DNA of 64,000 nucleotides. Origin: Kondoa subrosea (Eukaryota). The DNA lies in assembly GCA_039545335.1 (NCBI GenBank), contig BCIN01000003.1, positions 2,117,060 to 2,181,059 of the forward strand, read 5' to 3'. The notes below the pieces were generated by a model, which saw only the letters and a program-made list of their open reading frames with translations, did not search any database and was not told where the DNA came from. Positions 15,429-59,145 of the stretch are shown here, piece after piece. Every line of letters begins with the position of its first letter. Within the stretch, counting starts at the first letter, position 1. The position numbers were made by a program, and so were the translations under genes.

Positions 15429-18400
15429 ATGGACGCCGTCAAAGCAAGACAGGACGATGAAATAGCTTCCCTGCAGAGCATATTCGATACAGACTTTCGC
15501 TTTATCAAACCAGCGACAGCTTGGAAAGTGAGTACAATTAGTACTCGGGTTGGGACGCATTAAACTAGAGGCTGCATAGAATGTAAATGCGCCTGTCGAA
15601 TTCGTCATCCATGTGCAGCCTATGGACATCAGTCTGCGAGAGCAGCTCTCCGTTGACTTGCACATAAAGTGAATCTTTTTGTTTTCTCGTCCCCGATTTT
15701 GGTTTATGCCTTGCTTCCTGTCCTAATAGGCTACCGAAAACTTATCCTAAAGTTCTTCCTATTTTCAGCCTGGAACAGGCCAAAGGTATCTCATCAAGCA
15801 AGATCACAACGCTTCAATCTCTTCTCAAACGGACAGCACAAGAGCTGCAGGGCAATGAAGCAATCTTTGAGCTGGTCTCCGTCACGTCTAACTACATTTC
15901 AGAGAACCATGGTGTTACTAGACCTCAAGACAATGTTTCTTTGATTGAAGAATTGGGTCAGCGAGAGAAAGCTGCTCGAGAAGCCGAACAATTGCGCTCT
16001 TCAGAAGCTCTTGCTGAACAAGAAAGACAGCAGCAGCAAGACAGAGCGGAATTAGCCAGTCTTATTGAATCGGATCGTAAGAGACAGCTGGATGCAATTC
16101 GGGAGAGTGAAGGCAGATGGACTCCAAGTAACGATGGGGCCGGACTGAATGATTCTGATAACAACTCGACTTGGAAATTGAGGATGTCGGATGGAATTCG
16201 ACCGTGTTTAGTCCAGCTTGGTTCTCATATTCGCGATATTTCCGTCTCTTCGCTGCATCATGTACAAGTAATACCGGATTCTGGTGAACCGATATCTGCA
16301 TTCCTGCTCAAGATTGATTTCAGTAAAGCGAGATCATATTATAGCTCTACTTCTGGCCAACGGAAAATAGCAACAGTGCAAGATGATTTATCTAGGCTGG
16401 AAGAGCTCTCGTCGTACGTCTATGTAATCGAAGCCTGACTCGGCTAAGCAAAGTTTTAGTTCGCAGCTTGTCCAGATTTACGGGCATAGAGTTTTCTCGC
16501 ATGTCAACAACGGCTCAACAGTCCGACTGGAAATTATCATTGGCCTTTTCGCGTCGACCCTCGACGACTTACTTCAGCTGTGCGGAGAGATGCAGCCCGA
16601 GAAAGTGCTACAGATAGCTGGACACACTCTGACTGGCTTGCGACAATTGCATTCGGCTGGTCTGACGCACAAGCGTCTCACACTTCATTCTATGGTTCTT
16701 GTTGCCGGGAAACCCGATCCGAGGCTCTTTGGTTCTTCTTATCTCCAACGTCTCTTCGATATGCATCGCTCGGTGCCTTTCACCAGCGGTGTCATTCGTG
16801 CAACTGTACCAGAAGCTTGGGATTGCCCAGAAGCTGTTTATGATCCTCTGGCGTATGATAAACCACGCGATATCTGGGATCTTGGTCTATGTCTAATCAA
16901 GCTCATCTTCGGCAATGGAGCTTTAGAACAGATCAGCGGACCTCACGATGCCCTAGCTTTGAGTATATTCTATTCTTGCCGTGCTTTCTTCTGTTCATTG
17001 GTTGCAATAGTAAGACATCCTTTGCTGCAGCAACTTTTGGCCGCTATCTTTGTTCCGGTCAGGCAAAGACTTTCTGCAGCTCAATTGCTGCAACTTGTGG
17101 ACACTAAGCAAGATTCTGCCTTGTTTTCCCCAATGAAATCACCTGGTAAGACACATATTGTATCGGTAGTAGCGCATTGTTGATCCGGGGCCTAGGTTTT
17201 CTGTCATCATCTATACCAAGCATATCAATACCTTTACCCATAGATAAAACCTTACAACTAGCTGGCAGTCCGGAGCGACCTAATGCACTCTTTTACCAGC
17301 CCCAAAGACAGCTCCAGCCAGCTACTTCTCGTTACAGATCAGAGTTCGAAGAAGTCGAATTTCTAGGCAAAGGTGGCTTTGGATCAGTCGTTAAAGCAGT
17401 CAACAAATTGGACAAGAATTACTACGCGATCAAAAAGATCAAGATGCCAAATGACATTTTAGCGGAACAGAAAATTCTACGAGAAGTCACAACCTGGAGC
17501 AGGCTGAATCACCCAGCCATTGTACGATATCACACCGCTTGGGTCGAAAGTGAAACATACTCCCTTGACGCAGACAAAGCTTTACTGGAAATCGAGGATT
17601 CTCAATCCAATACGCCTACGCACGAAATCCAAACGGACACACAGACCGAGTCGATGGACGATTTTTCGCTTGGTGTCGCTTTCGACGACGACAACGACTT
17701 TTTATCCAAAGATGGTCACGAGCGGGAGGGATCATACCCTCAAATACACTTCGGAGGATCAGATGATGATTCTGACTCTGACTCCAGTTCTAACGACTCG
17801 AAAGGCTTGAAAAGTGAAGCCAAACAATCTGCTGCACGCTCAAGGGCAGCATCAGTGAATAGACAGCAACAAAAGCGCACATTATATATTCAGTAAGCTT
17901 TTGTTTCCATCTATAGTCTTGTCAGCTGAGATTTCGGTCAGGATGGAATTCGTCGATGGACGCACACTGCGAGAGGTAATGAAAACATCCACGCAAGAAC
18001 TCTGTCTGACACAAGGCCAGGCTATTGACGTCGGAATTAAAGAAGATGAAGCTTGGCGCCTATTGCGTCAAATCCTGGGTGCAGTATGTGAACCGCTGAG
18101 CGAGTCACAAACCGCTGATCGCGAAGCAGATCGTGTCATTCACCTCAATTGGGATCGTTCATCGCGACCTAAAGCCTGGCAATATCTTCCTTGATCGACT
18201 GGGACAAGTCAAAGGTCAAGAAATTGCTAATTCCACAAACCCAAACTGACCACTTTATGTGTAGTCGGCGACTTTGGTATGTGCAACTGAAGTCTCTAGA
18301 ATTTGCTGCTTAGCCGTTGATCTAGGTTTGGCGGTCGAGACTTTCGAAAGTCTTTCTAGTAGCCAAGTGCTGTTGCCGAAAGATGCAGAGTCAGATATGA

Positions 18401-21400
18401 CATCGGGTGAGTCGTGTGTGCAATCAAGATGAGCTGGTCGTTAACCGCTTGAGCAGGTGTCGGAACCGGTCTTTATCTAGCGCCAGAGAGCATTTCGTCT
18501 GCAAAATTGGCAACAAGCAGGCATCACACTGCAAACAAAAGTAAGCTTCTATGCGCATGTCGATCTGTCTAGACCAATAGAAAGCAGTCGACATGTACAG
18601 TCTTGGTATATGTGAGTATGTCAAGGAACGGCTGTACATGTCAATGACGTTTATGCGGCAGGTTTTTTCGAAATGGTCTTTCCGATCAGCACAAAAATGG
18701 AACGGATCAAAATACTCCAAGCGCTGCGGACACCTGAAATCAGCTTTCCAGATCATTGGAACCCTCATAGTTTCGGCAAACAACGGCAAGTAATTAGATG
18801 GCTTCTATCGTGGACACCTAGCGAGAGACCGACTGCTAACGAGCTTCTACATTCCGATTTGCTTCCACCTGTCGTAGTGGACGAAGTGATTGAGGAGGCC
18901 ATTAGACAAATCGCGCAGGTAAGCTCTTGATGTGATTTAATAGAATTCTTCTCGTCTAAGTAGTAACGCGTTGTAGCCGAAGTCTCAACACAGACATGCA
19001 GTGCTCGCTACGCTGTTTCAGCCAACAGCTAAGGAAAGGCTTTCGCAAGATTATTTGTATGACTACGCAAATACAGCTGCTGTGGAGCCCGAACCATACA
19101 ACGCCATCGTCAGTGCTTGTTCTGCTGCAGATACATACCTTGTCGAAGACATCTGATGTCTCTGCTGCAGGTAAAAGATGAGCTGCGTTTTCTATTCCAG
19201 AGAAGAGGAGCAGTAGAATTACATTCTCCGTTATTGCTTCCTGCTAGTCCAGCTTATGACCCAGAAGAAGGTAGACGACCCGTAAAACTCATTGACGAAA
19301 ATGGAGTGAGGATCACTATCATGCTGCACGAACTTGGTGTTAATCCCAAACCTTGTATGGCAGACTGCAACACAATTACCATATGATCTAGTGGTTCCGT
19401 TATGCCGGCAAATCGCTCGAGATCCTCAGCTCGGACGCTTGAAGCGTTTTTCTATCTCATCTGTTTTCCGGCGACGAGAACCAGCGGGAGGTCAACCAAG
19501 AGCTCCTTTGGTTGCATCTTTTGATATAGTATCGTCCGTTGATACGCTTGCCGCAGAGGCAGAATGGTAGGTGGGTCATTGTGCCGAGCTCGACTTGTTG
19601 ACAACGTGTGTCGTAGTATTCATGCCATTGGTATGTACTTTGCCTGATATGACTTGAACAGATTTGATGTTTCCTTCAGATGAAATATTGGACGTATTTC
19701 CTCTACATGGTGCAGAATACGTTCACCAGCTTGGTCACACCGGCTTGACTGAAGCACTTTTGGCTGAAACGAAACCAGAAACACGCAAGCTGGTGTTCCG
19801 AGCTTTGGAGGCCATCAATAATCGTGGAGAGATAGGAAACCACCATCGAGTAAATCTGGAGCTGCAAAAGATTGTCGACCTAGATCGGCGCATTCTGGAA
19901 AAGATGTTAATCTTCAACTCCTTCTGTGAGTTACTACCGCCTTGAATCGCGTGTACACTCTAATCCTGCTGGATAGTCACAATACAAGACCTGCTCAAAC
20001 AATACAGTATAAGTTCACGCTTCGCTGCTGCAGCGGAAGCCCTAGACGAGATTGTATCGCTTTGTAGCGATTTGGATGTCAAGCGAGACATTCTCGTATG
20101 CCCTTTGTTGGTGATCAATGGCCACTTGCACCGCGGCAAACGAGACGTTGCGTTCTTTCAAACCGTTCGCAAGCATAAATCTGGATCAACAACACTGGCT
20201 GTTGGTGGGAGGTGTGTTTTCTGCGAAAATCGTCTCTGATTGAGCTCATAATCTGCGAAGATTTGACAATCTTGTCGAGACCTTTGTTCAGCACGAGCGA
20301 AAAAGTGCCATCCACGTGGTCGGCGTATCAATAGCTGTGCTTCAACTGTCCAGATCTCTGGCTCAAGAACAAGAAGCATCCGTGAAAGCCTTGGCTATAG
20401 CTTCTCAAGGCAGCGAGAAGTCTTTCGGACGGTATCCTTCGCGGCGAGTAAGAGAATCTGCTCTTCTTGCAGCCGGTCGTATCTGATGATATAGCAAGTG
20501 TGACGTATATGTTGTCTCATTCAACTCAGGGCTGTTGAAAGCAAGGTTGTCTCTATGTGGTTTACTATGGAAGAACAACATCAAAGCAGACCTTGTGCGT
20601 TTCTCGCTTCGATGTGAAATGCAGAATAATTGATTCGGTATAGATGTACGATGATGATACGGAGACAGATTCCATCGAACAGATGACCATTACTAGAAGA
20701 AGAGAAGGCATCTTGTTCTTGGTATTTTCTCAACACACTGATTCGGCAGTTGTTGATTGTCCATATCAGGTCATTGTCAAACACAACCAGTTCTCTTACA
20801 AAGTGCGGAATGTTCTCAGATCAGGCGAATCTGAAGGTATGTAGTTGTTAAATAGGAAACTTATCTGATGATTTGACCGCAGTCCCAAAATCTGACCTGA
20901 TCCCATACCTCAGCGAGAACATTGCCGAACAATCTCGCATCGATCAGCAGCTCAGCAATGAGCGGCAAGGCAAAGATCTCGTATATCCTGGTCATGCACA
21001 CGTCAAGACGTCCGACTATCGCCACTCCTCGACGGGTGAAGTCCATCTCTTGTCTCCTGAGAATGGGAAGAAGCAGCAACTTGCTCGGCAAAGGAACCTG
21101 ATCGCTACTAAAGCGAGTGACTCTGTTTCTACCTGCATCACTTCATTAAAGGACGCTCCGATCTTCGCCGTGGAATTCAGCGGTGAACACTTTCACTCAC
21201 TGGGTGACAGTCGCTGGGTACATGACCCAGACATCTATGCCCGGATGTCTGCTTCGATACCCCAAAACAAAAAGCAAGCGCTCTCTCAATTACGAGGCGC
21301 ACTTCGAGATCATTGCAAGACAACAGAAGATCGACCAGTGCAAGCCTTTCTCTTCTCTGTATCCACCAATCGTTCGTTATTGTTGAGCTTCGATGTTTAG
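15429..21400 (+). CDS. GCN2: eIF2-alpha kinase GCN2 (RWD, pseudokinase, kinase, HisRS-like, C-terminal domains)
   Basis: QDDEIASLQSIF (RWD); SRYRSEFEEVEFLGKGGFGSVVK; LREVTTWSRLNHPAIVRYHTAWVE; HRDLKP; GDFG; GTGLYLAPE; LPYDLVVP (HisRS-like). Confidence 0.96.
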
Positions 21401-25716: not shown

Positions 25717-26754
25717 ATGCCTGCTCATCTAGCATGCAGTCTCTGGGGCAAACGAAGCAGTGATACAACAATCCTGTATTGTCATGGTTTGAACGAAAGC
25801 TCTTTGAGCTTCAATCACTTAGCCAAGACTTTGGTTCAGGACCGTATGTGTAGACCTACCTACATCCGTACCGTACTAAATACTACTGGCACTAGACTTC
25901 TACTGTATAGCCTATGATGCTCCTGGACACGGTCGAAGTCCTCTAGCGCCAGATTTGGAGCAATATACTTTCGAAAACTTAGCCCTTGCTACCAAAATTC
26001 AGCTTGAGGATCATAATCTTCAGTTCGTGAATACAATCATCGGTCATTCACTAGGCGGATTAGTGGCCTTGGCGTTAATTCCTCTTCTCCCACAACCTCC
26101 TGATCGAATTATACTCTTGGATCCTGCATTTGATATTTCAGATCAAGTGAGGGAAGGTGCAAGAAACGGATGCAAAGAGGAGATTGCTCGATGTCCCGCA
26201 ATACAAGATTATCAAAACGAACAACCGCTTTCCTCGCGAGATGATTGTGTAGGTTCCTCTTCTTCTTGCTCTCTGAGTAATCACATTGATTGTCTGAATC
26301 ATGATCTCCTCATTGTAGGTCGCTGAGGCATTCAATGCAGCCTCAGCATTTCCAGAAGCGATAGACAAAATTCTAGATGTTCGTTCACCTCTCCTCTTGT
26401 ACACGTCTCTCTGGTGTCTTACTTGATTTGAATTCATCACTAATCAGGCAAATACACCTTGGTCGAATCATTCGAGATATTTAAAAGCAATACCTCAAGG
26501 ACTCGATCTCATCATTGTTGCTGGTGATCCAGAAAAAGGAGTTACTTTCACTGCCAAAGCTGCAACAACAGCTCGACAAGCTTATCCTGGTGTGAAGATT
26601 GGATATGTGTAAACTAATCTTCAGGCGCTTCATCTGCATCATACTGATCAATTTTGTTAGCAAAGGAGCAGGTCATGGGGTTCATAGAGATTTCCCGTGC
26701 ATCATAGAAGGAATTGTTAAGACTGGCGATGTCACAGTATTGCAAGATTTGTGA
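25717..26754 (+). CDS. Alpha/beta hydrolase, paralog A
   Basis: HGLNES, AYDAPGHGRS, nucleophile motif GHSLGG, ILLDP, GAGHGVHRDFP; four introns. Confidence 0.88.
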
Positions 26755-27948: not shown

Positions 27949-28789
27949 TTACTGCGCAGCAAGACAATCCAAATTGTATTTTATGCCCGCTGCGACAATC
28001 TTCTTGACTACCTCCGATTCTCTTTCATCCCGTGGAGCGTATAGCAATACTAACCCATTATCGATGATCGCTCCAGTAGGTGTGGGCTTCCCAGCCAGAG
28101 GAAATGTTACACCCCAAGCTCGTTCAACAACTTGGACAGCATCTTTGGGATGCAAACACACATGCAAAGAAGAATCGGTATGGATGTGTAGGCGATCATG
28201 AGCGAAAGAAGGAGATTGCGATGGTCTTTGCGAATAGCAAGCAAGACCTGAATGACCTTCTCTGACACTTGGAGCGAGAAGAAGATCATTGTTTTCCCCT
28301 TGCAGACGAATGTAAGAAGTGAGGTCTGTCGTTATCTGAGAAGGAATGACAGCTTCAGGTTTATGACGGTGAGGCAAGACCCTAAAGATGCTTTCAGCAC
28401 AGTGTCTCGCTAGCGGACAATGTGCTCACCAGTCTATCATCGGTGGACGAGGACCTGTCCTTTGCGGAAGATCAGATAGATAAGATCGCTCTTCATCGTG
28501 CTCCTTGAGAAATGTGGTGTCCAAAGGGTCTCTATCAATTTCATCAGGTATCGGACAATGCGTGCGTCCTTGCAAACCACCTTCCAGTGAATCTCAATTG
28601 GTGCGATAGCAGCCAAGCACGCCAACCTGAGAAGCCTGCCCTATCCATCAACGCTGTGCACAGTCGCTTCGCGAGCAACATACCGCTCCCTTTAATATCG
28701 CTCCATTGCTGAAAGTCGTGAAGCGCCCAGATCGCGCCTATTGCTGCTGCTGCACCGCTTGCAAGGGACCAGTTGGGAATTCTGCTCAT
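27949..28789 (-). CDS. Luciferase-like (DUF5519-type) domain protein with an N-terminal TM anchor
   Basis: RVLPHRH, LHIHTDSSLHVCLHPKDAVQVVERAWG and LVLLYAPRDERESEVV; N-terminus WSLASGAAAAIGAIWALHDF. Confidence 0.75.
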
Positions 28790-28865: not shown

Positions 28866-29877
28866 ATGGCAGCATGCTCAACTTGGGGCAAAAGGAGCAG
28901 CGGACATAGGATCTTGTGCTTTCATGGCTTGAAGAGCAGTTCCTTGAGTTTCAATCGGATTGCGAAGAGTTTGGCGCAAGATGGTAGGACAACTTGAAGC
29001 ACATTCAACCAAGAAACTAGCGTTGAGGTCTTCTCTTGTTTCTGTCAGGCTTTTATTGTGAAGCCTACGATTACCCTGGACATGGCCGCTCACCAGTCGC
29101 GACTAATGTGGATGACTACACGTTCGATAATTTAGCAAAAGCTATCAAAGCAGAACTCTCCGAGTCCGAAGATGGGCCTATCAAGACTGTGATCGGTCAC
29201 TCTATGGGCTGCCTCGTCGCGCTAGCTATGGTCCCTCTTCTTTCCTCGGCTCCTTCTCGTATCGTTCTTTTGGATCCTGCATACGATGTATCAGATAAAG
29301 CCAGAGAGGGCGCTAGAAACGGATGCAAAAAGGAAGCGGCTCGTTGTCCTAGTATGCAAGATTATCAGCTTGAAGAACCTTTGTACACTCGAGACGATTG
29401 CGTTGGTCAATGTTCATTGGCTTTGTTTTTACTTACTCGTTCGTTTGCTTATCCAGATCGCTGAAGCCTTCAATGCAGCCTCAGTGTCACCAGAAGCTAT
29501 TGACGGTATCATGGATGTTAGTACACTGTCGTTTTCCAATCGATACTTGAACCTCATGAGATTTCCTAGGCAAATGTGCCTTGGACGGATCACGCTAGAT
29601 ACCTGAGAGCTCTACCAGCCAAGGGCATCGAAGTCATCATCGTTGCTGCCGATCCCGAAAAGGGCGCTGTTTTCAACGCTGAAGCTGCTGCGAAAGCACG
29701 AGTCGGTTATCCTGACATAAAGATTGGGTATATGTCAGTCTTCTTCTCATAAAACTTCGGTATATAAATAATTGGTTCCACAGCAAAGGAGCTGGACATG
29801 GACTGCACCGTCAATTCCCTCAAATCGTCGAAGCAATCATCCAAACTGGTGATATCTCAGCTTTGGAGACGCTATAG
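28866..29877 (+). CDS. Alpha/beta hydrolase, paralog B
   Basis: HGLKSS, AYDYPGHGRS, GHSMG, VLLDP, GAGHGLHRQFP. Same four intron positions as paralog A. Confidence 0.88.
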
Positions 29878-41685: not shown

Positions 41686-44600
41686 ATGTCCACCAAAGCG
41701 TGCGTACATACACTGAACTACGCGCTTCTGCCTTGAGAAGCTGATTCTTTGAAAAATTCATGCATCTCCAGAATTTACGAGGCAGACGCCAAACAAGTAC
41801 TTGCTTATTGGTTAAGCCGAGCTCCCAACCACAGCAAGAACACCACTGTCAGCTCTTCGTTCAAAGCACCAGAACCCAAAGTCGCCCAGGTTGGTGTATA
41901 GAGTGCGCGCGCGCTATGGTGTTCATTTCCTGACTGTACACGAATAGATCTCTTGGGATTCAGCTACAAAACAAATCACGCCTGACTCGGCACTCCCTTC
42001 TTGGGTCTTCAACACAAAACTAGTCGTCAAGCCGTATGTCTAAGATTGTAGACTTGCATGACAAGCTTCTCATTAATTTCGGTGGGGCAACAGAGATCAA
42101 CTTATCAAGCGTCGTGGGAAAGCTGGTCTGCTCGCGCTCAACATTGAATGGCCTGAAGCTAGAAAATGGATTGAAGCTCGGTAATGCAACTTTTCGCGCG
42201 CATTGACCTCGATCTAATTTGAGCCTTGCAGCGCTGGCAAACCAGTGACTGTCAGTCAAACATGAGCAAATGATAAGATCTTGGCTTATTTCGGCATTTT
42301 TGAACTGACAGGTTGATGGCATTACTGGAACGCTACACAACTTCATTGTCGAACCTTTCCTACCTCATCCTTCCAACACCGAATACTACGTCTGCATCAA
42401 CTCTGTTCGTGAAGGCGATATTATTCTTTTCACTCACGAAGGTGGTGTCGAAGTTGGAGATGTAGATGCCAAAGCATTGAAGCTGCTAGTACCCGTTGGC
42501 GGAACCCTTCCATCTAGATCAGAAATTGCTTCGACGCTGCTGAAAGATGTGACAAAAGAGAAGCACGAAGCGCTCGTCGACTTCTTGGTCGCTCTTTACA
42601 ACGTTTACGCTGACCTACACTTCGCTTACCTTGAAATCAACCCTCTCATCTGCCTTGATGCCGTCAATGGCGAACAGCCAGCTATTCACTTCTTGGACAT
42701 GGCTGCTAAGCTCGATCAGGTCAGAAGAATGTCGATACAATTGTGATCTTGGCTGAATTTTCCATTGACAGACCGCAGATCACCTTTGCGGACCTAAATG
42801 GGCTATTGCTCGAGACAGCAGCAGCGCAGCACCAGCAGCGGGAGCTAAAGTCAGCGCCGATCGTGGCCCACCAATGGTCTTCCCTGCTCCTTTCGGTCGT
42901 GATTTGACCAAAGAAGAAGCCTACATCCAAAAACTTGACGCTTCTACTGGAGCTTCCCTCAAATTGACTGTCTTGAACCCTGAAGGACGTGTATGGACTA
43001 TGGTCGCTGGTGGAGGTGCTTCAGTCGTATACTCGTAAGCCTATCGATGCCGGGCTACGTTTAATTACTAAAAGCTGGAACCCAGTGACGCTATTGCTGC
43101 ACATGGTTTCGCTCACGAACTCGCCAACTATGGTGAATACTCTGGAGCACCAACAGAGAACCAGACATACGAATATGCAAAGACCATTCGTGAGTAGCTC
43201 AACTATAGAAGTTTGACAGAAACTTAGTAGGACGATGCATCTCACAGTTGATCTCATGACTCGCGGATCACCAAACCCTAAAGGCAAACTTCTCATCATC
43301 GGTGGTGGTATCGCCAACTTCACAAACGTCGCTTCAACCTTCAAGGGTATCATTCGTGCTCTCAAGCAATTCCAACAAGGTCTTCAACAACACAAAGTCC
43401 GCATCTTCGTTCGACGTGGTGGACCAAATTACCAAGAGTGCGTAATTGTTATGTATCGAGAGAAGTTTGCGCTGACACCGATCTTTAGAGGTCTAAAGGC
43501 TATGCGTCTCCTTGGTGAAACTCTTGGTGTCGAAATTCAAGTCTTCGGTCCTGATGACTTCATCACTGCTTGCGTTCCTCTTGCTCTCGGTGTCAAGAAG
43601 AGCGAAACTTTGAGTGTACCAAACGGTATCAGCAACGCCAACCCTACACCTGTTCCTTCACGCGCTCCTTCTCCAGCACCAGGTCCATCTACCCCTCGCC
43701 CTCAAGAGACCGTCGGTCCATCTCGCGGCAACGGTAGACACGAAGATATCGTCTCATTCGAAAAGGAAGCTAGCAAAGGATCAGCTCAGAGACCATGGTA
43801 CAGACCTTTCGACGAGACTACTCGTTCTTTGGTCTATGGTCTCCAACCTCGTGCTATTCAAGGCATGTTGGACTTTGATTTCGCTTGTGGGCGTGAAACT
43901 CCTTCTGTTGCTGCTATGGTCTATCCTTTCGGTGGTAACTCTATGCAAAAGTGTAAGTCGTTCTTGAATACTGTTCAGCTAAGGGGCTGATGCTGGTCTA
44001 GTCTACTGGGGAACCAAAGAAACTCTTCTACCAGTCTTCACTTCAGTTGCGGAAGCAGTCAAGAAATGCCCTGAAGCCGATGCTCTAGTCAACTTCGCCT
44101 CTTCTCGATCTGTCTACTCTTCTACTCTTGAATGTCTTGAATTCCCTCAAATCAAGTCTATTGCTCTCATTGCTGAAGGTGTACCGGAACGTCATGCTCG
44201 GGAAATCTTGTTCTTGGCTCAACAAAAGAAGGTCATCATCATCGGTCCTGCTACTGTTGGTGGTATCAAGCCTGGATGCTTCAGAATTGGTAACACCGGA
44301 GGGTGAGCAAAACTTTCGCTGGTCTATCGAGATCTGACTTTAAAGACTTCACTGTCCACAGAATGATGGACAACATCCTTGCTTCCAAATTGTACCGTGC
44401 TGGTTCCGTTGCCTATGTTTCCAAGTCCGGAGGCATGTCAAACGAGCTGAACAACATTCTTTCTCTTTGTAAGTGACATGTTCATCTATGATTGAATGAA
44501 TGCATTTGAACGTTGACTCTACAGCTACCGATGGAACATACGAAGGTATCGCCATTGGTGGTGATCGCTACCCTGGAACAACTTTCATCGACCACTTGCT

Positions 44601-46055
44601 CCGATACGAAGCTGACCCTAACTGCAAAATGCTTGTTCTGCTCGGTGAAGTCGGAGGTATCGAAGAATACAGAGTCATTGAAGCGGTCAAGAGTGGAGCC
44701 ATCAAGAAGCCAATTGTCGCTTGGGCTATCGGAACTTGCGCCAAAATGTTCGCTACTGAAGTCCAATTCGGTCATGCTGGTTCTATGGCCAACTCTGATC
44801 TTGAAACTGCTGAGGCTAAGAACAACGCCATGAAGGCTGCTGGTATCATTGTGCCAGACACTTTCGAAGATCTCCCAGTTGTCCTCAAGAACGAATACGA
44901 ACGTCTGCTCAGCGAAGGCATCATTTCTCCTAAAGCTGAACGATCACCACCGAGCATTCCTATCGATTACAAATGGGCTCAAGAACTTGGTCTTGTTCGA
45001 AAGCCCGCTCAATTCATCTCTACCATCTCAGATGAGCGTGGTCAAGAACTCCTCTACAACGGTATGCGCATTTCAGATGTCTTCAAGGAGGATGTAGGTT
45101 CTGCCGGCTTTCCCCTTAATTCAGTCTGACATTGCAAATAGATTGGTATTGGAGGTGTTATGGGTCTCCTTTGGTTCAAGCGAAGACTGCCTGCTTATGC
45201 AACCAAGTTCTTGGAGATGGTTCTCATGCTTACAGCCGATCACGGTCCAGCTGTATCTGGTGCCATGACTACCATCATCACTACACGAGCAGGCAAAGAT
45301 CTCGTCTCATCTTTGGTCGCTGGTCTTCTGACCATCGGTGACCGATTCGGTGGTGCTCTCGACGGTGCTGCTGCTGAATTCACTCGCGCGCTGGATACTG
45401 GTCTCACACCAAGAGAATTTGTCGATTCAATGCGAAAGGCAAACAAACTCATTCCTGGTATTGGTCACAAGATCAAGAGCAAGACCAACCCTGATCTACG
45501 TGTCGAGCTGGTTAAGAACTACGTCAAGGAACATTTCCCCGTCACCACCGTATGTCATTTTTTCTATTCAAAAATAAAAATTTTCTTTTACTGACCAATT
45601 ATAGACTTTGGATTACGCTCTGGCAGTCGAATCAGTGACATCAGCAAAGAAGGATACCCTCATTCTCAACGTTGATGGATGTATTGCTGTGTCTTTTGTC
45701 GATTTGCTCAGGTCGTCTGGCGCTTTCACTGCCGAAGAAGCTGAAGAATACATGAAGATCGGAACTCTGAACGGTCTGTTCGTTCTTGGTCGAAGCATAG
45801 GTTTCGTTGGACATCACTTGGATCAGAAGAGGCTACGTGCAGGTCTTTACAGGTAAGTCGAATTCATTGCTGTTGCTTAATCCGATAGCTGACTGCGCCC
45901 ATGTAACACCTACAGACATCCTGCAGACGATATCCTGAGTTGCAAAGCCCTTGTAAACGTAAACTATGCTCATACCTTTTTTTCATCTTCTACAGCATAT
46001 TACCGCTTTCGAGCCAGAAAGAATCGTTGTTCAACCATCAAAGAGCAAAGCGTAG
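41686..46055 (+). CDS. ACL1: ATP-citrate lyase, single fused polypeptide
   Basis: [68 protein letters not shown] and LYRHPADD, all in one gene. Confidence 0.97.
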
Positions 46056-46348: not shown

Positions 46349-47879
46349 ATGCCTTTCGGTTTTGGACAGCCAAAGTCGCATAATAAGAAGAAGAACTACA
46401 CTTTTCAAGACGGTGTAATAGGAACTGGGGGATTTTCGATAGGTTGGAAGAATCAATGCCCAAAGTGCGCAATGGGCTGAGATCTGGCCATAGTCCGTAA
46501 AGCTCGCTGGAATGGCGGAGACAAAGTCTCACTCGATGCAACACGAGATGTAGCAGTTCGTTAGCTGTTTGTCAAGCGGTTGAAATGGGCGTAACAATAA
46601 CAATGTCTACAGGTTAAGATCGTCAAGAAGGAACTGATCAAGCGAAGAGACAACTATTTGCACATCTTGGCATGGTTGACAGAGCACAGCGACGAGCATG
46701 AGCATATCATGACTCTCTATGAATGGTTTGAATCCACTTCAAAGTACTACATCACCTTCCAATTAGCTATGGGCGGAGAGCTGTTTGATCGGATAGCTGT
46801 TCAGCCTTATACGGAGGATGAAGGAAGAGAAGCGGCGAGAGCTATGATAGTACGTTGTGCGCTCATTGTCAACTAATGTGTCTGAGTATAGAGTAGGACG
46901 TAGTCGGATTCTGTCATGATCGAGGCATGATACATCGAGATATCAAGCCAGAAAACTTCCTTTACCTGAACAAATCCGATCCAAAGAGTTTCTTATTGTC
47001 GGATTTTGGAATAGCGGAAGTCTTGGACGATCCGAATGAGCGAGAAGTGCTATATGAAATCTGTGGTACTCCAGGTATGCTCGGTTTCTGTCGATAGGCT
47101 ATTATACTTAATGCTTTCGCAGGGTTAGCGAAAGACATTCCAACTACGGAATAATGGCTAACGACTTGGCAGGTATACTGCTCCAGAAATATACAGACGT
47201 GATGGATACGATCGCAAGTGCGATATATAGTAAGTATAGATCTTGTCCGTTCGCTTTACGCTGATACCTCGATCAGTTCCGCGGGAATGGTCATCTATGC
47301 CTGGTTAGTCAGCGACTGAGCACCATCCTTCCTTGACTGATCTGAGTATGATATAGCCTGTCTGGCTGGTCGCCATTCAGTGCAAGAGATATGGAAGGCA
47401 TAGTAACAGAAACTCTTCGCGGCGAAATCACCTTCCCAAGGCAAAAATGGGCAAATCACTCGGATGATTGTAAGGTCCTCTGTCGGCTGTTTTACTATCA
47501 ATGACGATCAATTACAGGCAAAGACTTTCTTCTACATCTACTGGAATCAGATGAGAAGAAGCGGCCAACAGCGAAAGAGGCACTGAAACATAAAGTAGGG
47601 TTGATCTGGTGTACAATTGATTCTCCTGATCTTATTGCAGTGGCTATCACAAACATCATCGCCACTCAAAAAGGATACCAAGCATCTGGCAGTACCTGGA
47701 GCAGAACTTGCAGCAGGTTCTGGTTTGAAGAGAGTGCCGACGATAGATGTAAGTCGACTTATGGATATCCATCGCTCTCTCTCTGACAGACTTTGTAGAC
47801 TCAAGAGCATCCTTTGGTGCGAAAACTGACAGCTGGAAGTGTCACCTACACCAAAGGTCTATGGAATCCAAATCACTAG
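46349..47879 (+). CDS. Ca2+/calmodulin-dependent (CMK1-like) Ser/Thr kinase
   Basis: [41 protein letters not shown] and CGTPGYTAPE (the last needs a 1-nt exon at 47123). The start could instead be at 46249. Confidence 0.88.
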
Positions 47880-58110: not shown

Positions 58111-59145
58111 TTACAACTCAAGGCCTACAAGAACGAAGGCATCTGATTGAGCTGATTGATTGGCGGGCATGACGGCACCACCAATGTAGAGAAGGGAGTG
58201 AAGAGTTTGAGCTGTGTTCATAAAGCACGTTCAGCTCTTGATAGAGCCTGAAGCACTTCTGACTCACCTAATTCGCAGTCATTCTTTTCAAGAACAACTA
58301 CAACCTGATCGCAAGCCAAATCTTCATCGGCGTGATCCAAAAGAGCAATCACGTTCTCCCTTGAGCGAACGTCGAAACCGCTCTGCCCTTTAGCATAAAC
58401 GGTTCGACCACCTTCACAATCCTCGACGAGAGCCAAAGACCAGCCGGTGAGCTTGGAGTCGACGTTGAGAGCGGTGCGGCCAACATCACAAGTCGGAAAG
58501 ACAGACTCCAAGAAGGTTGAGCTTGAAGGACCAAAGAAGTCGAGAGAATCGGTTGACGATGCTGGAGAAAGCATAGGAGCTGCAAAGGAAGATTTGCCAG
58601 CTTTGTTGAGCATCATGCCGAATGACGAGATTGAAGAGCCACCGAAAGAGGAAGCAGGAGAAGTTGAAGGAGTGGATAGAGGGGATAAGTCGGAAGCCAG
58701 GGTATCGATTACAGCCATAGAAGAAACAGAGTCGAGAGAAGCAGCCAAGAAACGGTTTGTGTCTTTCACCCACTTGCCGTCACCTCCAACAATATTGGCA
58801 TCAATTGAAGGCATTTGCTCGTGGTCGATGCTGTGTTGACAAGCTATGTTCAGTACATTGCAAAGTACGATGAGACTCATTCTGCTCACTCAGGACCACG
58901 ACTCGACCCCAATGGCCAACGTGCTGAAATTGGTGTTACCAGCAGTAGAAGTAGCGCAAGAAACAGGAGCCCTATAACAGAAATGTTAGGACAAAGGACT
59001 AATCGGTCAATATTGCCATTACCCATCACGAGTCAACTTTGCCAAGTTGCTCAAGGGGCGCATCTATACAGTGAATGAGGTCTCGACCGATGCCTATGCT
59101 CTATCCCATCCCACTTACACTAATATTGGCTGAATTTGGATTCAT
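58111..59145 (-). CDS. OAZ1: Ornithine decarboxylase antizyme (needs a +1 ribosomal frameshift)
   Basis: ORF1 (49 aa; exons 59145-59119, 59063-59023, 58971-58890) ends TGG TCC TGA. ORF2 in the +1 frame contains RENVIALLDHADEDLACDQVVVVLEK...LHSLLYIGG...VLVGLEL. Confidence 0.93.
58890..58898 (-). other. Programmed +1 frameshift site UGG-UCC-UGA
   Basis: The UCC-UGA shift site of mammalian and S. pombe antizymes. It puts ORF2 exactly in the +1 frame after splicing. Confidence 0.9.

Follow-up and report, generated by a model that had tools for sequence, protein, structure and literature searches.

A single guanine in a CaMKI-like protein kinase gene of the basidiomycete Kondoa subrosea, G47123, is probably a constitutive exon of one base, flanked by two introns that are recognised singly; both the inclusion of this base and its constitutive use are what we infer from the genomic sequence. 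Two normal introns around a one-base exon form the reading that is best supported by every test that we ran, i.e. the logic of the reading frame, a gap-free alignment to a relative, the sizes of introns, the scores of splice signals and a simulation of chance. All positions given here are those of the window, the whole stretch of 64,000 nucleotides that was analysed (contig BCIN01000003.1, positions 2,117,060 to 2,181,059 of the forward strand). The window is fungal nuclear DNA with a G+C content of about 46%; it is gene-dense and its genes are interrupted by very short introns.

Several other genes were observed in the window. A GCN2-like gene with many exons (15668-21397, plus strand) encodes an RWD domain, two pieces of a kinase domain and a HisRS-like anticodon-binding domain, and its C-terminal exon (20852-21397) had five matches in the representative protein library, none of them a full-length GCN2. 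An ORF on the minus strand (27952-28425) carries the Pfam 'Luciferase domain' PF17648 (E 9e-15) and is flanked by two alpha/beta-hydrolase ORFs on the plus strand, at 25880-26323 and 29027-29461. The domain of ornithine decarboxylase antizyme (PF02100, E 7e-6) was recognised in a further ORF on the minus strand (58221-58889); the translation of antizyme genes usually depends on a programmed +1 ribosomal frameshift.

The kinase gene and its reading frame

The kinase gene extends from 46349 to 47879 on the plus strand, on which all of its features lie, and was modelled as 11 exons and 10 introns, with an open frame of 344 codons when G47123 is kept. Exon 1 (46349-46442) of the gene model contains the start codon and the glycine-rich loop GTGGFS, and matches the start of L001, the contig of the closest relative, which is described below. 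Exons 2 (46494-46555) and 3 (46613-46849) were likewise taken from the model, the latter covering the N-lobe from the VAVK lysine onwards and coinciding with a Pfam Pkinase match in the ORF at 46601-46873. The modelled introns between these exons, intron 1 (46443-46493, 51 nt, phase 1) and intron 2 (46556-46612, 57 nt, phase 0), have counterparts in L001, where an intron-like insert is found at the same position and in the same phase as intron 1 and another at the same position as intron 2. Intron 3 (46850-46896, 47 nt, phase 0), indicated by the model and by spliced alignment, precedes exon 4 (46897-47074), which encodes HRDIKPEN, DFG and EICGTP, ends with the first G of a glycine codon and is 69% identical to P0001, the protein of the same relative. 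Intron 4 (47075-47122, 48 nt, phase 1; donor GTATGC, TTAAT, acceptor CAG) is followed by the proposed one-base exon at 47123, a G that would be the middle base of the glycine codon G-G-G, and by intron 5 (47124-47172, 49 nt, phase 2; donor GTTAGC, CTAAC, acceptor CAG). Exon 6 (47173-47229) supplies the third G of this codon and continues with TAT ACT GCT CCA GAA. In the remainder of the gene, both the model and spliced alignment indicate introns 6 (47230-47276, 47 nt), 7 (47304-47356, 53 nt), 8 (47470-47517, 48 nt), 9 (47595-47640, 46 nt) and 10 (47749-47798, 50 nt), together with exon 7 of only 27 nt (47277-47303). Exon 8 (47357-47469) was placed by the model and by alignment to P0001, and exons 9 (47518-47594) and 10 (47641-47748) by the gene model. 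The coding part of exon 11 (47799-47879) runs to the stop codon; its C-terminus matches P0001 and its end was computed from the 344-codon ORF. The model protein belongs to the CaMK group of kinases (Pfam PF00069, Pkinase) and contains the catalytic motifs, which we take to be the Gly-rich loop, the VAxK lysine, HRDxKxxN, DFG and GTPxYxAPE, the last of which reads GTPGYTAPE when the one-base exon is included. The kinase domain is followed by a tail of roughly 60 residues.

The first-pass annotation had described G47123 as standing between introns of 48 and 49 nt, each with a donor, a branch-like motif and an acceptor, and both the sequence and the coordinates that it gave are correct. It had also claimed that keeping the base builds a GGG codon from three exons and restores the canonical CGTPGYTAPE, whereas skipping it destroys the frame; the model translation bears this out. 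With G47123 included, the frame is open and reads ...EICGTPGYTAPEIY..., and with G47123 skipped, it is broken after CGTPG, continues as CGTPGILLQK and runs into its first stops about 46 codons on. The phase is 1 at the end of exon 4 (TGT GGT ACT CCA G, up to 47074) and 2 at the start of exon 6, therefore the number of bases missing between them has to be 1 (modulo 3). G47123 is flanked directly by an AG acceptor and a GT donor (cAG-G-GTtagc, 47120-47129). The 98 nt between exons 4 and 6 contain four further AG and three further GT dinucleotides, and within them G47123 is the sole solution flanked by AG and GT whose length is 1 modulo 3. Nor do the 98 nt contain a micro-exon of 4 or 7 nt between AG and GT, and an in-frame connection of CGTP-G with YTAPE cannot be made by any canonical single GT-AG intron. 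The mRNA junction is predicted to read CCAGGGTATACT with G47123, and CCAGGTATACT if the 98 nt are removed in one piece.

A search with the protein encoded by exon 4 returned one close relative, P0001, a protein of 290 amino acids with 69% identity that is encoded on a JGI contig of 1,163 nt (L001). The next-best relatives reached at most 47% identity with exon 4 as the query and at most 44% with P0001 as the query, and the protein collection searched held no protein identical to exon 4 of the window. When the separate translations of exons 4 and 6 are aligned to P0001, which requires no gap, exactly one residue (G, codon GGA) lies between the CGTP of exon 4 and the YTAPE of exon 6, and the DNA of L001 is uninterrupted at this site, reading ...ACA CCT GGA TAT ACT GCA CCA GAA.... 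Taken as a whole, the model has the same residue as P0001 in 164 of 290 columns (57%), and no gap interrupts the alignment over a 70-residue excerpt around the junction. P0001 also carries PF00069, and its alignment with CaMKI structures, of which 4fg7_A is the best match (E 8e-45), requires no gaps and sets its CGTPGYTAPEV opposite the CGTPGYVAPEV of 4fg7_A. The intron-like inserts of L001, at 62-131 (phase 1) and 185-241 (phase 0), are located at the positions of window introns 1 and 2; the first of them would end in AAG, not YAG. L001 contains none of introns 3-10, and hence none at the site of the one-base exon, which indicates that it represents either a transcript from which only some introns had been spliced or a gene that has lost its introns towards the 3' end. 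It serves here as a length marker, in the way that the intron-free CYP621B1 does for Fusarium, and is silent on the conservation of the two introns. A metagenome scan with P0001 returned only its own contig L001 (one of the 43 matched stretches), and thus no ortholog with both introns.

Intron sizes, splice signals and the possibility of a single long intron

The position-weight scores for splice sites were based on 23 reference introns, eight of them the other introns of the kinase gene and 15 those of the adjacent ATP-citrate lyase gene. The latter gene (41686-45934, plus strand), just upstream of the kinase, encodes a fused, single-polypeptide ATP-citrate lyase; its 15 introns measure 48-72 nt and one of its exons, at 42232-42250, is a micro-exon of 19 nt. 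Two different orthologues yielded an identical model of this gene, frame-clean over about 1,134 residues, and its best matches, at 59-64% identity over the queried exon, were found among Pucciniomycotina and Agaricomycotina. The reference introns range from 46 to 72 nt (median 52, mean 54.0, SD 6.3), and none of the 23 is longer than 72 nt. Introns of 48 and 49 nt are typical of this set, and a single intron of 98 nt would lie about 7 SD out. A cruder, window-wide count of GT...AG candidates bridging open frames (309 on the plus strand, 228 on the minus strand) gave a flat background from which sizes of about 45-64 nt stood out as a peak.

The inner donor and the inner acceptor of the two candidate introns score as well as typical real sites do. 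The outer donor, that of intron 4, scores 4.6, which is within the range of the 23 reference introns, and the inner acceptor of the same intron scores 5.3 against a reference median of 4.5, a value matched by 7.6% of 369 decoy AGs. The inner donor, AGG/GTTAGC of intron 5, scores 5.7 against a leave-one-out reference median of about 5.9, and only 1.2% of 322 decoy GTs match it. The outer acceptor of intron 5 is a mediocre site with a score of 3.1 (22% of decoy AGs score as high), which counts against the two-intron reading. A G at position +5 is present in 22 of the 23 reference donors and in both candidate donors, which share the form GTNNG. A branch-like YTRAY motif occurs in both introns, as TTAAT in intron 4 and as CTAAC in intron 5, and in either case 11 nt follow its branch A; among the 23 reference introns, 17 contain such a motif at 8-27 nt.

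To be counted as a chance occurrence of such an arrangement, a site had to show AG-G-GT, donor and acceptor scores that both exceeded the 10th percentile of real sites, and a branch motif. Two such sites, one of them G47123, were found among the 127,800 positions on both strands of the window, and nine when any middle base was allowed. The other AG-G-GT, at 45490 on the minus strand, is antisense to the ATP-citrate lyase gene and was taken as a chance decoy. Among 200,000 simulated 98-nt introns, in which the real ends were kept and the composition was intron-like, 14 (7e-5) contained such a site with both halves 44-53 nt long.

These figures bear on the possibility that 47075-47172 is a single intron of 98 nt, and that one G was either dropped by the assembly or lost in a real, recent one-base deletion, which would make the gene a young pseudogene. 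The outer donor (4.6) and the outer acceptor with its CTAAC (3.1) would be usable together, and frameshifts from assembly errors are generally commoner than one-base exons; but an intron of this length falls outside the range of all 23 reference introns, and all the inner signals, from acceptor and branch motif to donor, would have to be put down to a coincidence of the order of 7e-5. The absence of frame errors from the roughly 1,134 codons of the ATP-citrate lyase gene and from the other nine exons of the kinase gene, which leaves about 4.4 kb of neighbouring coding sequence without such an error, argues against a sloppy assembly. A dropped base would, moreover, fall in a run of just two Gs and not in a long homopolymer. 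A pseudogene is at odds with a kinase ORF whose remainder is intact, 57% identical to P0001 and still in possession of all the catalytic motifs. We therefore consider a single long intron with a lost base unlikely, and our weighing of the evidence favours two introns by what appears to be a wide margin.

Predicted folding and further readings of the interval

The region 47060-47190 is predicted to fold as one long hairpin, with a minimum free energy of -39.1 kcal/mol (z -2.56) that 3 of 200 shuffles equalled; its energy ranks within the lowest 2.6% when compared with 2,555 windows and within the lowest 0.7% when compared with 849 that are GC-matched. In the predicted structure, AGGGTTA is bracketed by a perfect stem of 7 bp (CTTTCGC/GCGAAAG), the apical loop contains the one-base exon, and base pairs link the outer donor to the region of the outer acceptor. 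Such a hairpin, in which the sequences flanking the inner splice sites are paired, would, if formed, hinder the use of these sites, which counts against the two-intron reading, and favour removal of the 98 nt in one step. The 98-nt unit might accordingly be imagined as a structured splicing device, in which folding would decide between two-step splicing, leading to active kinase, and one-step removal, leading to a frameshifted and degraded mRNA; we regard such a device as distinctly improbable. Similarly improbable, and speculative, is the idea that the one-base exon is a regulated switch, as the first-pass annotation had suggested; in that case, one-step removal of the 98 nt would give a frameshifted mRNA targeted by NMD and the ratio of the two products would set the level of kinase. 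Skipping would indeed introduce premature stops some 46 codons further on, and five more introns follow; the predicted hairpin would join the outer donor to the outer acceptor and bury the inner sites. The hairpin, since it would favour one-step removal, is the sole observation made here that speaks for a switch; but the structural signal is modest and comes from a single post-hoc test, the inverted similarity of introns 4 and 5 is not significant, and fungi, in which splicing depends on intron definition, seldom skip exons.

The symmetry of the hairpin could also mark how the second intron arose beside the first, as has been proposed for symmetrical stwintrons. Three related ideas that we tried were rejected. 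A duplication, in which intron 4 would resemble intron 5, gave a similarity score of 9. A palindrome, in which intron 4 would resemble the reverse complement of intron 5, gave a score of 19, which 2.2% of 2,000 shuffles reached and which other intron pairs of the kinase gene equalled. An introner-like repeat was sought through further copies of the 98 nt, of which the window has none; the best other match was 15 nt long (E 1.1).

A different intron was selected by the spliced protein-to-genome aligner, which has no model for one-base exons. Given P0001, it picked a non-standard, in-frame intron at 47084-47186 (103 nt, GTTTCT...CCAG), which would produce ...CGTPGMLEIY..., with a P+1 loop shorter by two residues and YTAP gone. 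The acceptor of this intron scores 6.1, but its donor, at -0.6, is below all 23 reference donors and no better than 57% of decoy GTs, and GTTTCT is without the G at +5 that 22 of those 23 donors have. Its length is beyond the size range of the reference introns, it requires two skipped residues relative to P0001, and it throws away an in-frame and perfectly conserved YTAPE right behind a good acceptor. We consider this intron extremely unlikely.

Two further arrangements were rejected: a stwintron, as the signals of both introns are uninterrupted and a base is retained, and no GT follows G47075 at +1 or starts at 47122, as a [D1,2] or an acceptor-split stwintron would need; and a zero-nucleotide recursive splice site, as one base lies between AG and GT and is needed by the frame. 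Zero-nucleotide recursive splicing at ratchet points occurs in long introns of Drosophila and vertebrates, where an acceptor and a donor are juxtaposed, removal is stepwise and no base is kept. The juxtaposition of acceptor and donor is common to both situations, whereas in the kinase gene one base is kept and the introns are of about 48 nt.

Order of splicing and comparison with known one-base exons

On the preferred reading, that of two introns around a one-base exon, the introns of 48 and 49 nt would each be recognised separately by intron definition, by means of their own donor, branch motif and CAG acceptor. Because AG-G-GT is common to the acceptor of intron 4 and the donor of intron 5, two spliceosomes would most likely be unable to act there simultaneously, and the introns would be removed in succession. 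Such stepwise removal of introns 4 and 5 is a reasonable inference, and the study of a one-base exon in Arabidopsis argues for stepwise removal on steric grounds (PMC4674806). Either order of removal would present the same contexts, i.e. AGG before the donor of intron 5 and GG after the acceptor of intron 4. The resulting mRNA would carry CCA-GGG-TAT, in which GGG would encode the glycine of the activation-segment and P+1 motif CGTPGYTAPE.

If confirmed by RNA, this would be a one-base exon in a protein kinase, and one located within the activation segment and P+1 loop. Standard gene finders and spliced aligners cannot yield a model with a one-base exon, and the aligner used here offered an alternative that deletes the motif; in an annotation, the gene would therefore pass for a kinase that is damaged or truncated. 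The locus also offers a compact natural substrate, of 99 nt, for studying how two spliceosomes treat an overlapping acceptor and donor.

The phenomenon of the one-base exon is already documented, and the kinase case would add another member. The first-pass annotation had called exons of this size very rare, which is right, but precedents exist in the APC11 gene of Arabidopsis, in the CYP621A genes of Fusarium and, 13 in number, in Coprinopsis cinerea. None of the titles in the literature searched concerned a one-base exon of a protein kinase, which is not to claim that no such case is in print. According to Guo and Liu 2015 (PMC4674806), the one-nucleotide exon of APC11, A333, was proven by mutagenesis and cDNA sequencing. 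As described there, it resembles the kinase exon in being constitutive (a use that is proposed for the kinase), in lying between two GT-AG introns, in supplying a base that the frame needs and in the stepwise removal proposed for its introns; it differs in belonging to a plant gene, in the identity of the base, an A, and in its long and unequal introns (333 nt before the exon, in an interval of 422 nt). In the basidiomycete Coprinopsis cinerea, which likewise has many short introns, a long-read annotation reports 13 exons of 1 nt in 13 genes, the omission of which often leads to a premature stop (PMC12230235). Its one-base exons rest, unlike the kinase exon, on full-length transcript reads, and their number indicates that such exons are not vanishingly rare in intron-rich fungi. 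Stwintrons, or spliceosomal twin introns, are found in fungal genes of Pezizomycotina, and those of Hypoxylaceae that are internally symmetrical show a hairpin-like symmetry of the whole intervening sequence (PMC8469720). Two successive U2-type reactions take place at one site in stwintrons, as we propose for the kinase gene, where the predicted symmetry is weaker. In a stwintron, however, a splice signal of the outer intron is split by the inner one and no base stays behind, whereas the kinase gene has two complete introns and keeps one base.

A strikingly close parallel is found in the CYP621A P450 genes of Fusarium, in which Nelson and Syed 2026 (PMC12940212) report a one-base exon in 20-24 genes, with support from SRA reads. 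As reported, the Fusarium exon belongs to an ascomycete P450 and is both conserved and confirmed by reads, whereas the kinase exon belongs to a CaMK-type kinase of a basidiomycete and is predicted from one genome. The two cases otherwise resemble each other closely. Both are found in a fungal nuclear gene and have the same core, AG-G-GT, whose retained G takes the middle position of a glycine codon within a strongly conserved motif (PKG in the P450, GTPGY in the kinase). In both, an exon end in phase 1 could not be joined to an exon start in phase 2 without the base, the unsplit intron would be about twice the usual size, and an intron-free relative provides a length marker. If the kinase exon is real, the AG-G-GT and glycine-codon design of the Fusarium P450 genes recurs in a distant basidiomycete. 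Such a recurrence would support the view that a G flanked by AG and GT is the favoured form of the one-base exon, and that exons of this kind survive where a cluster of introns falls inside an invariant motif.
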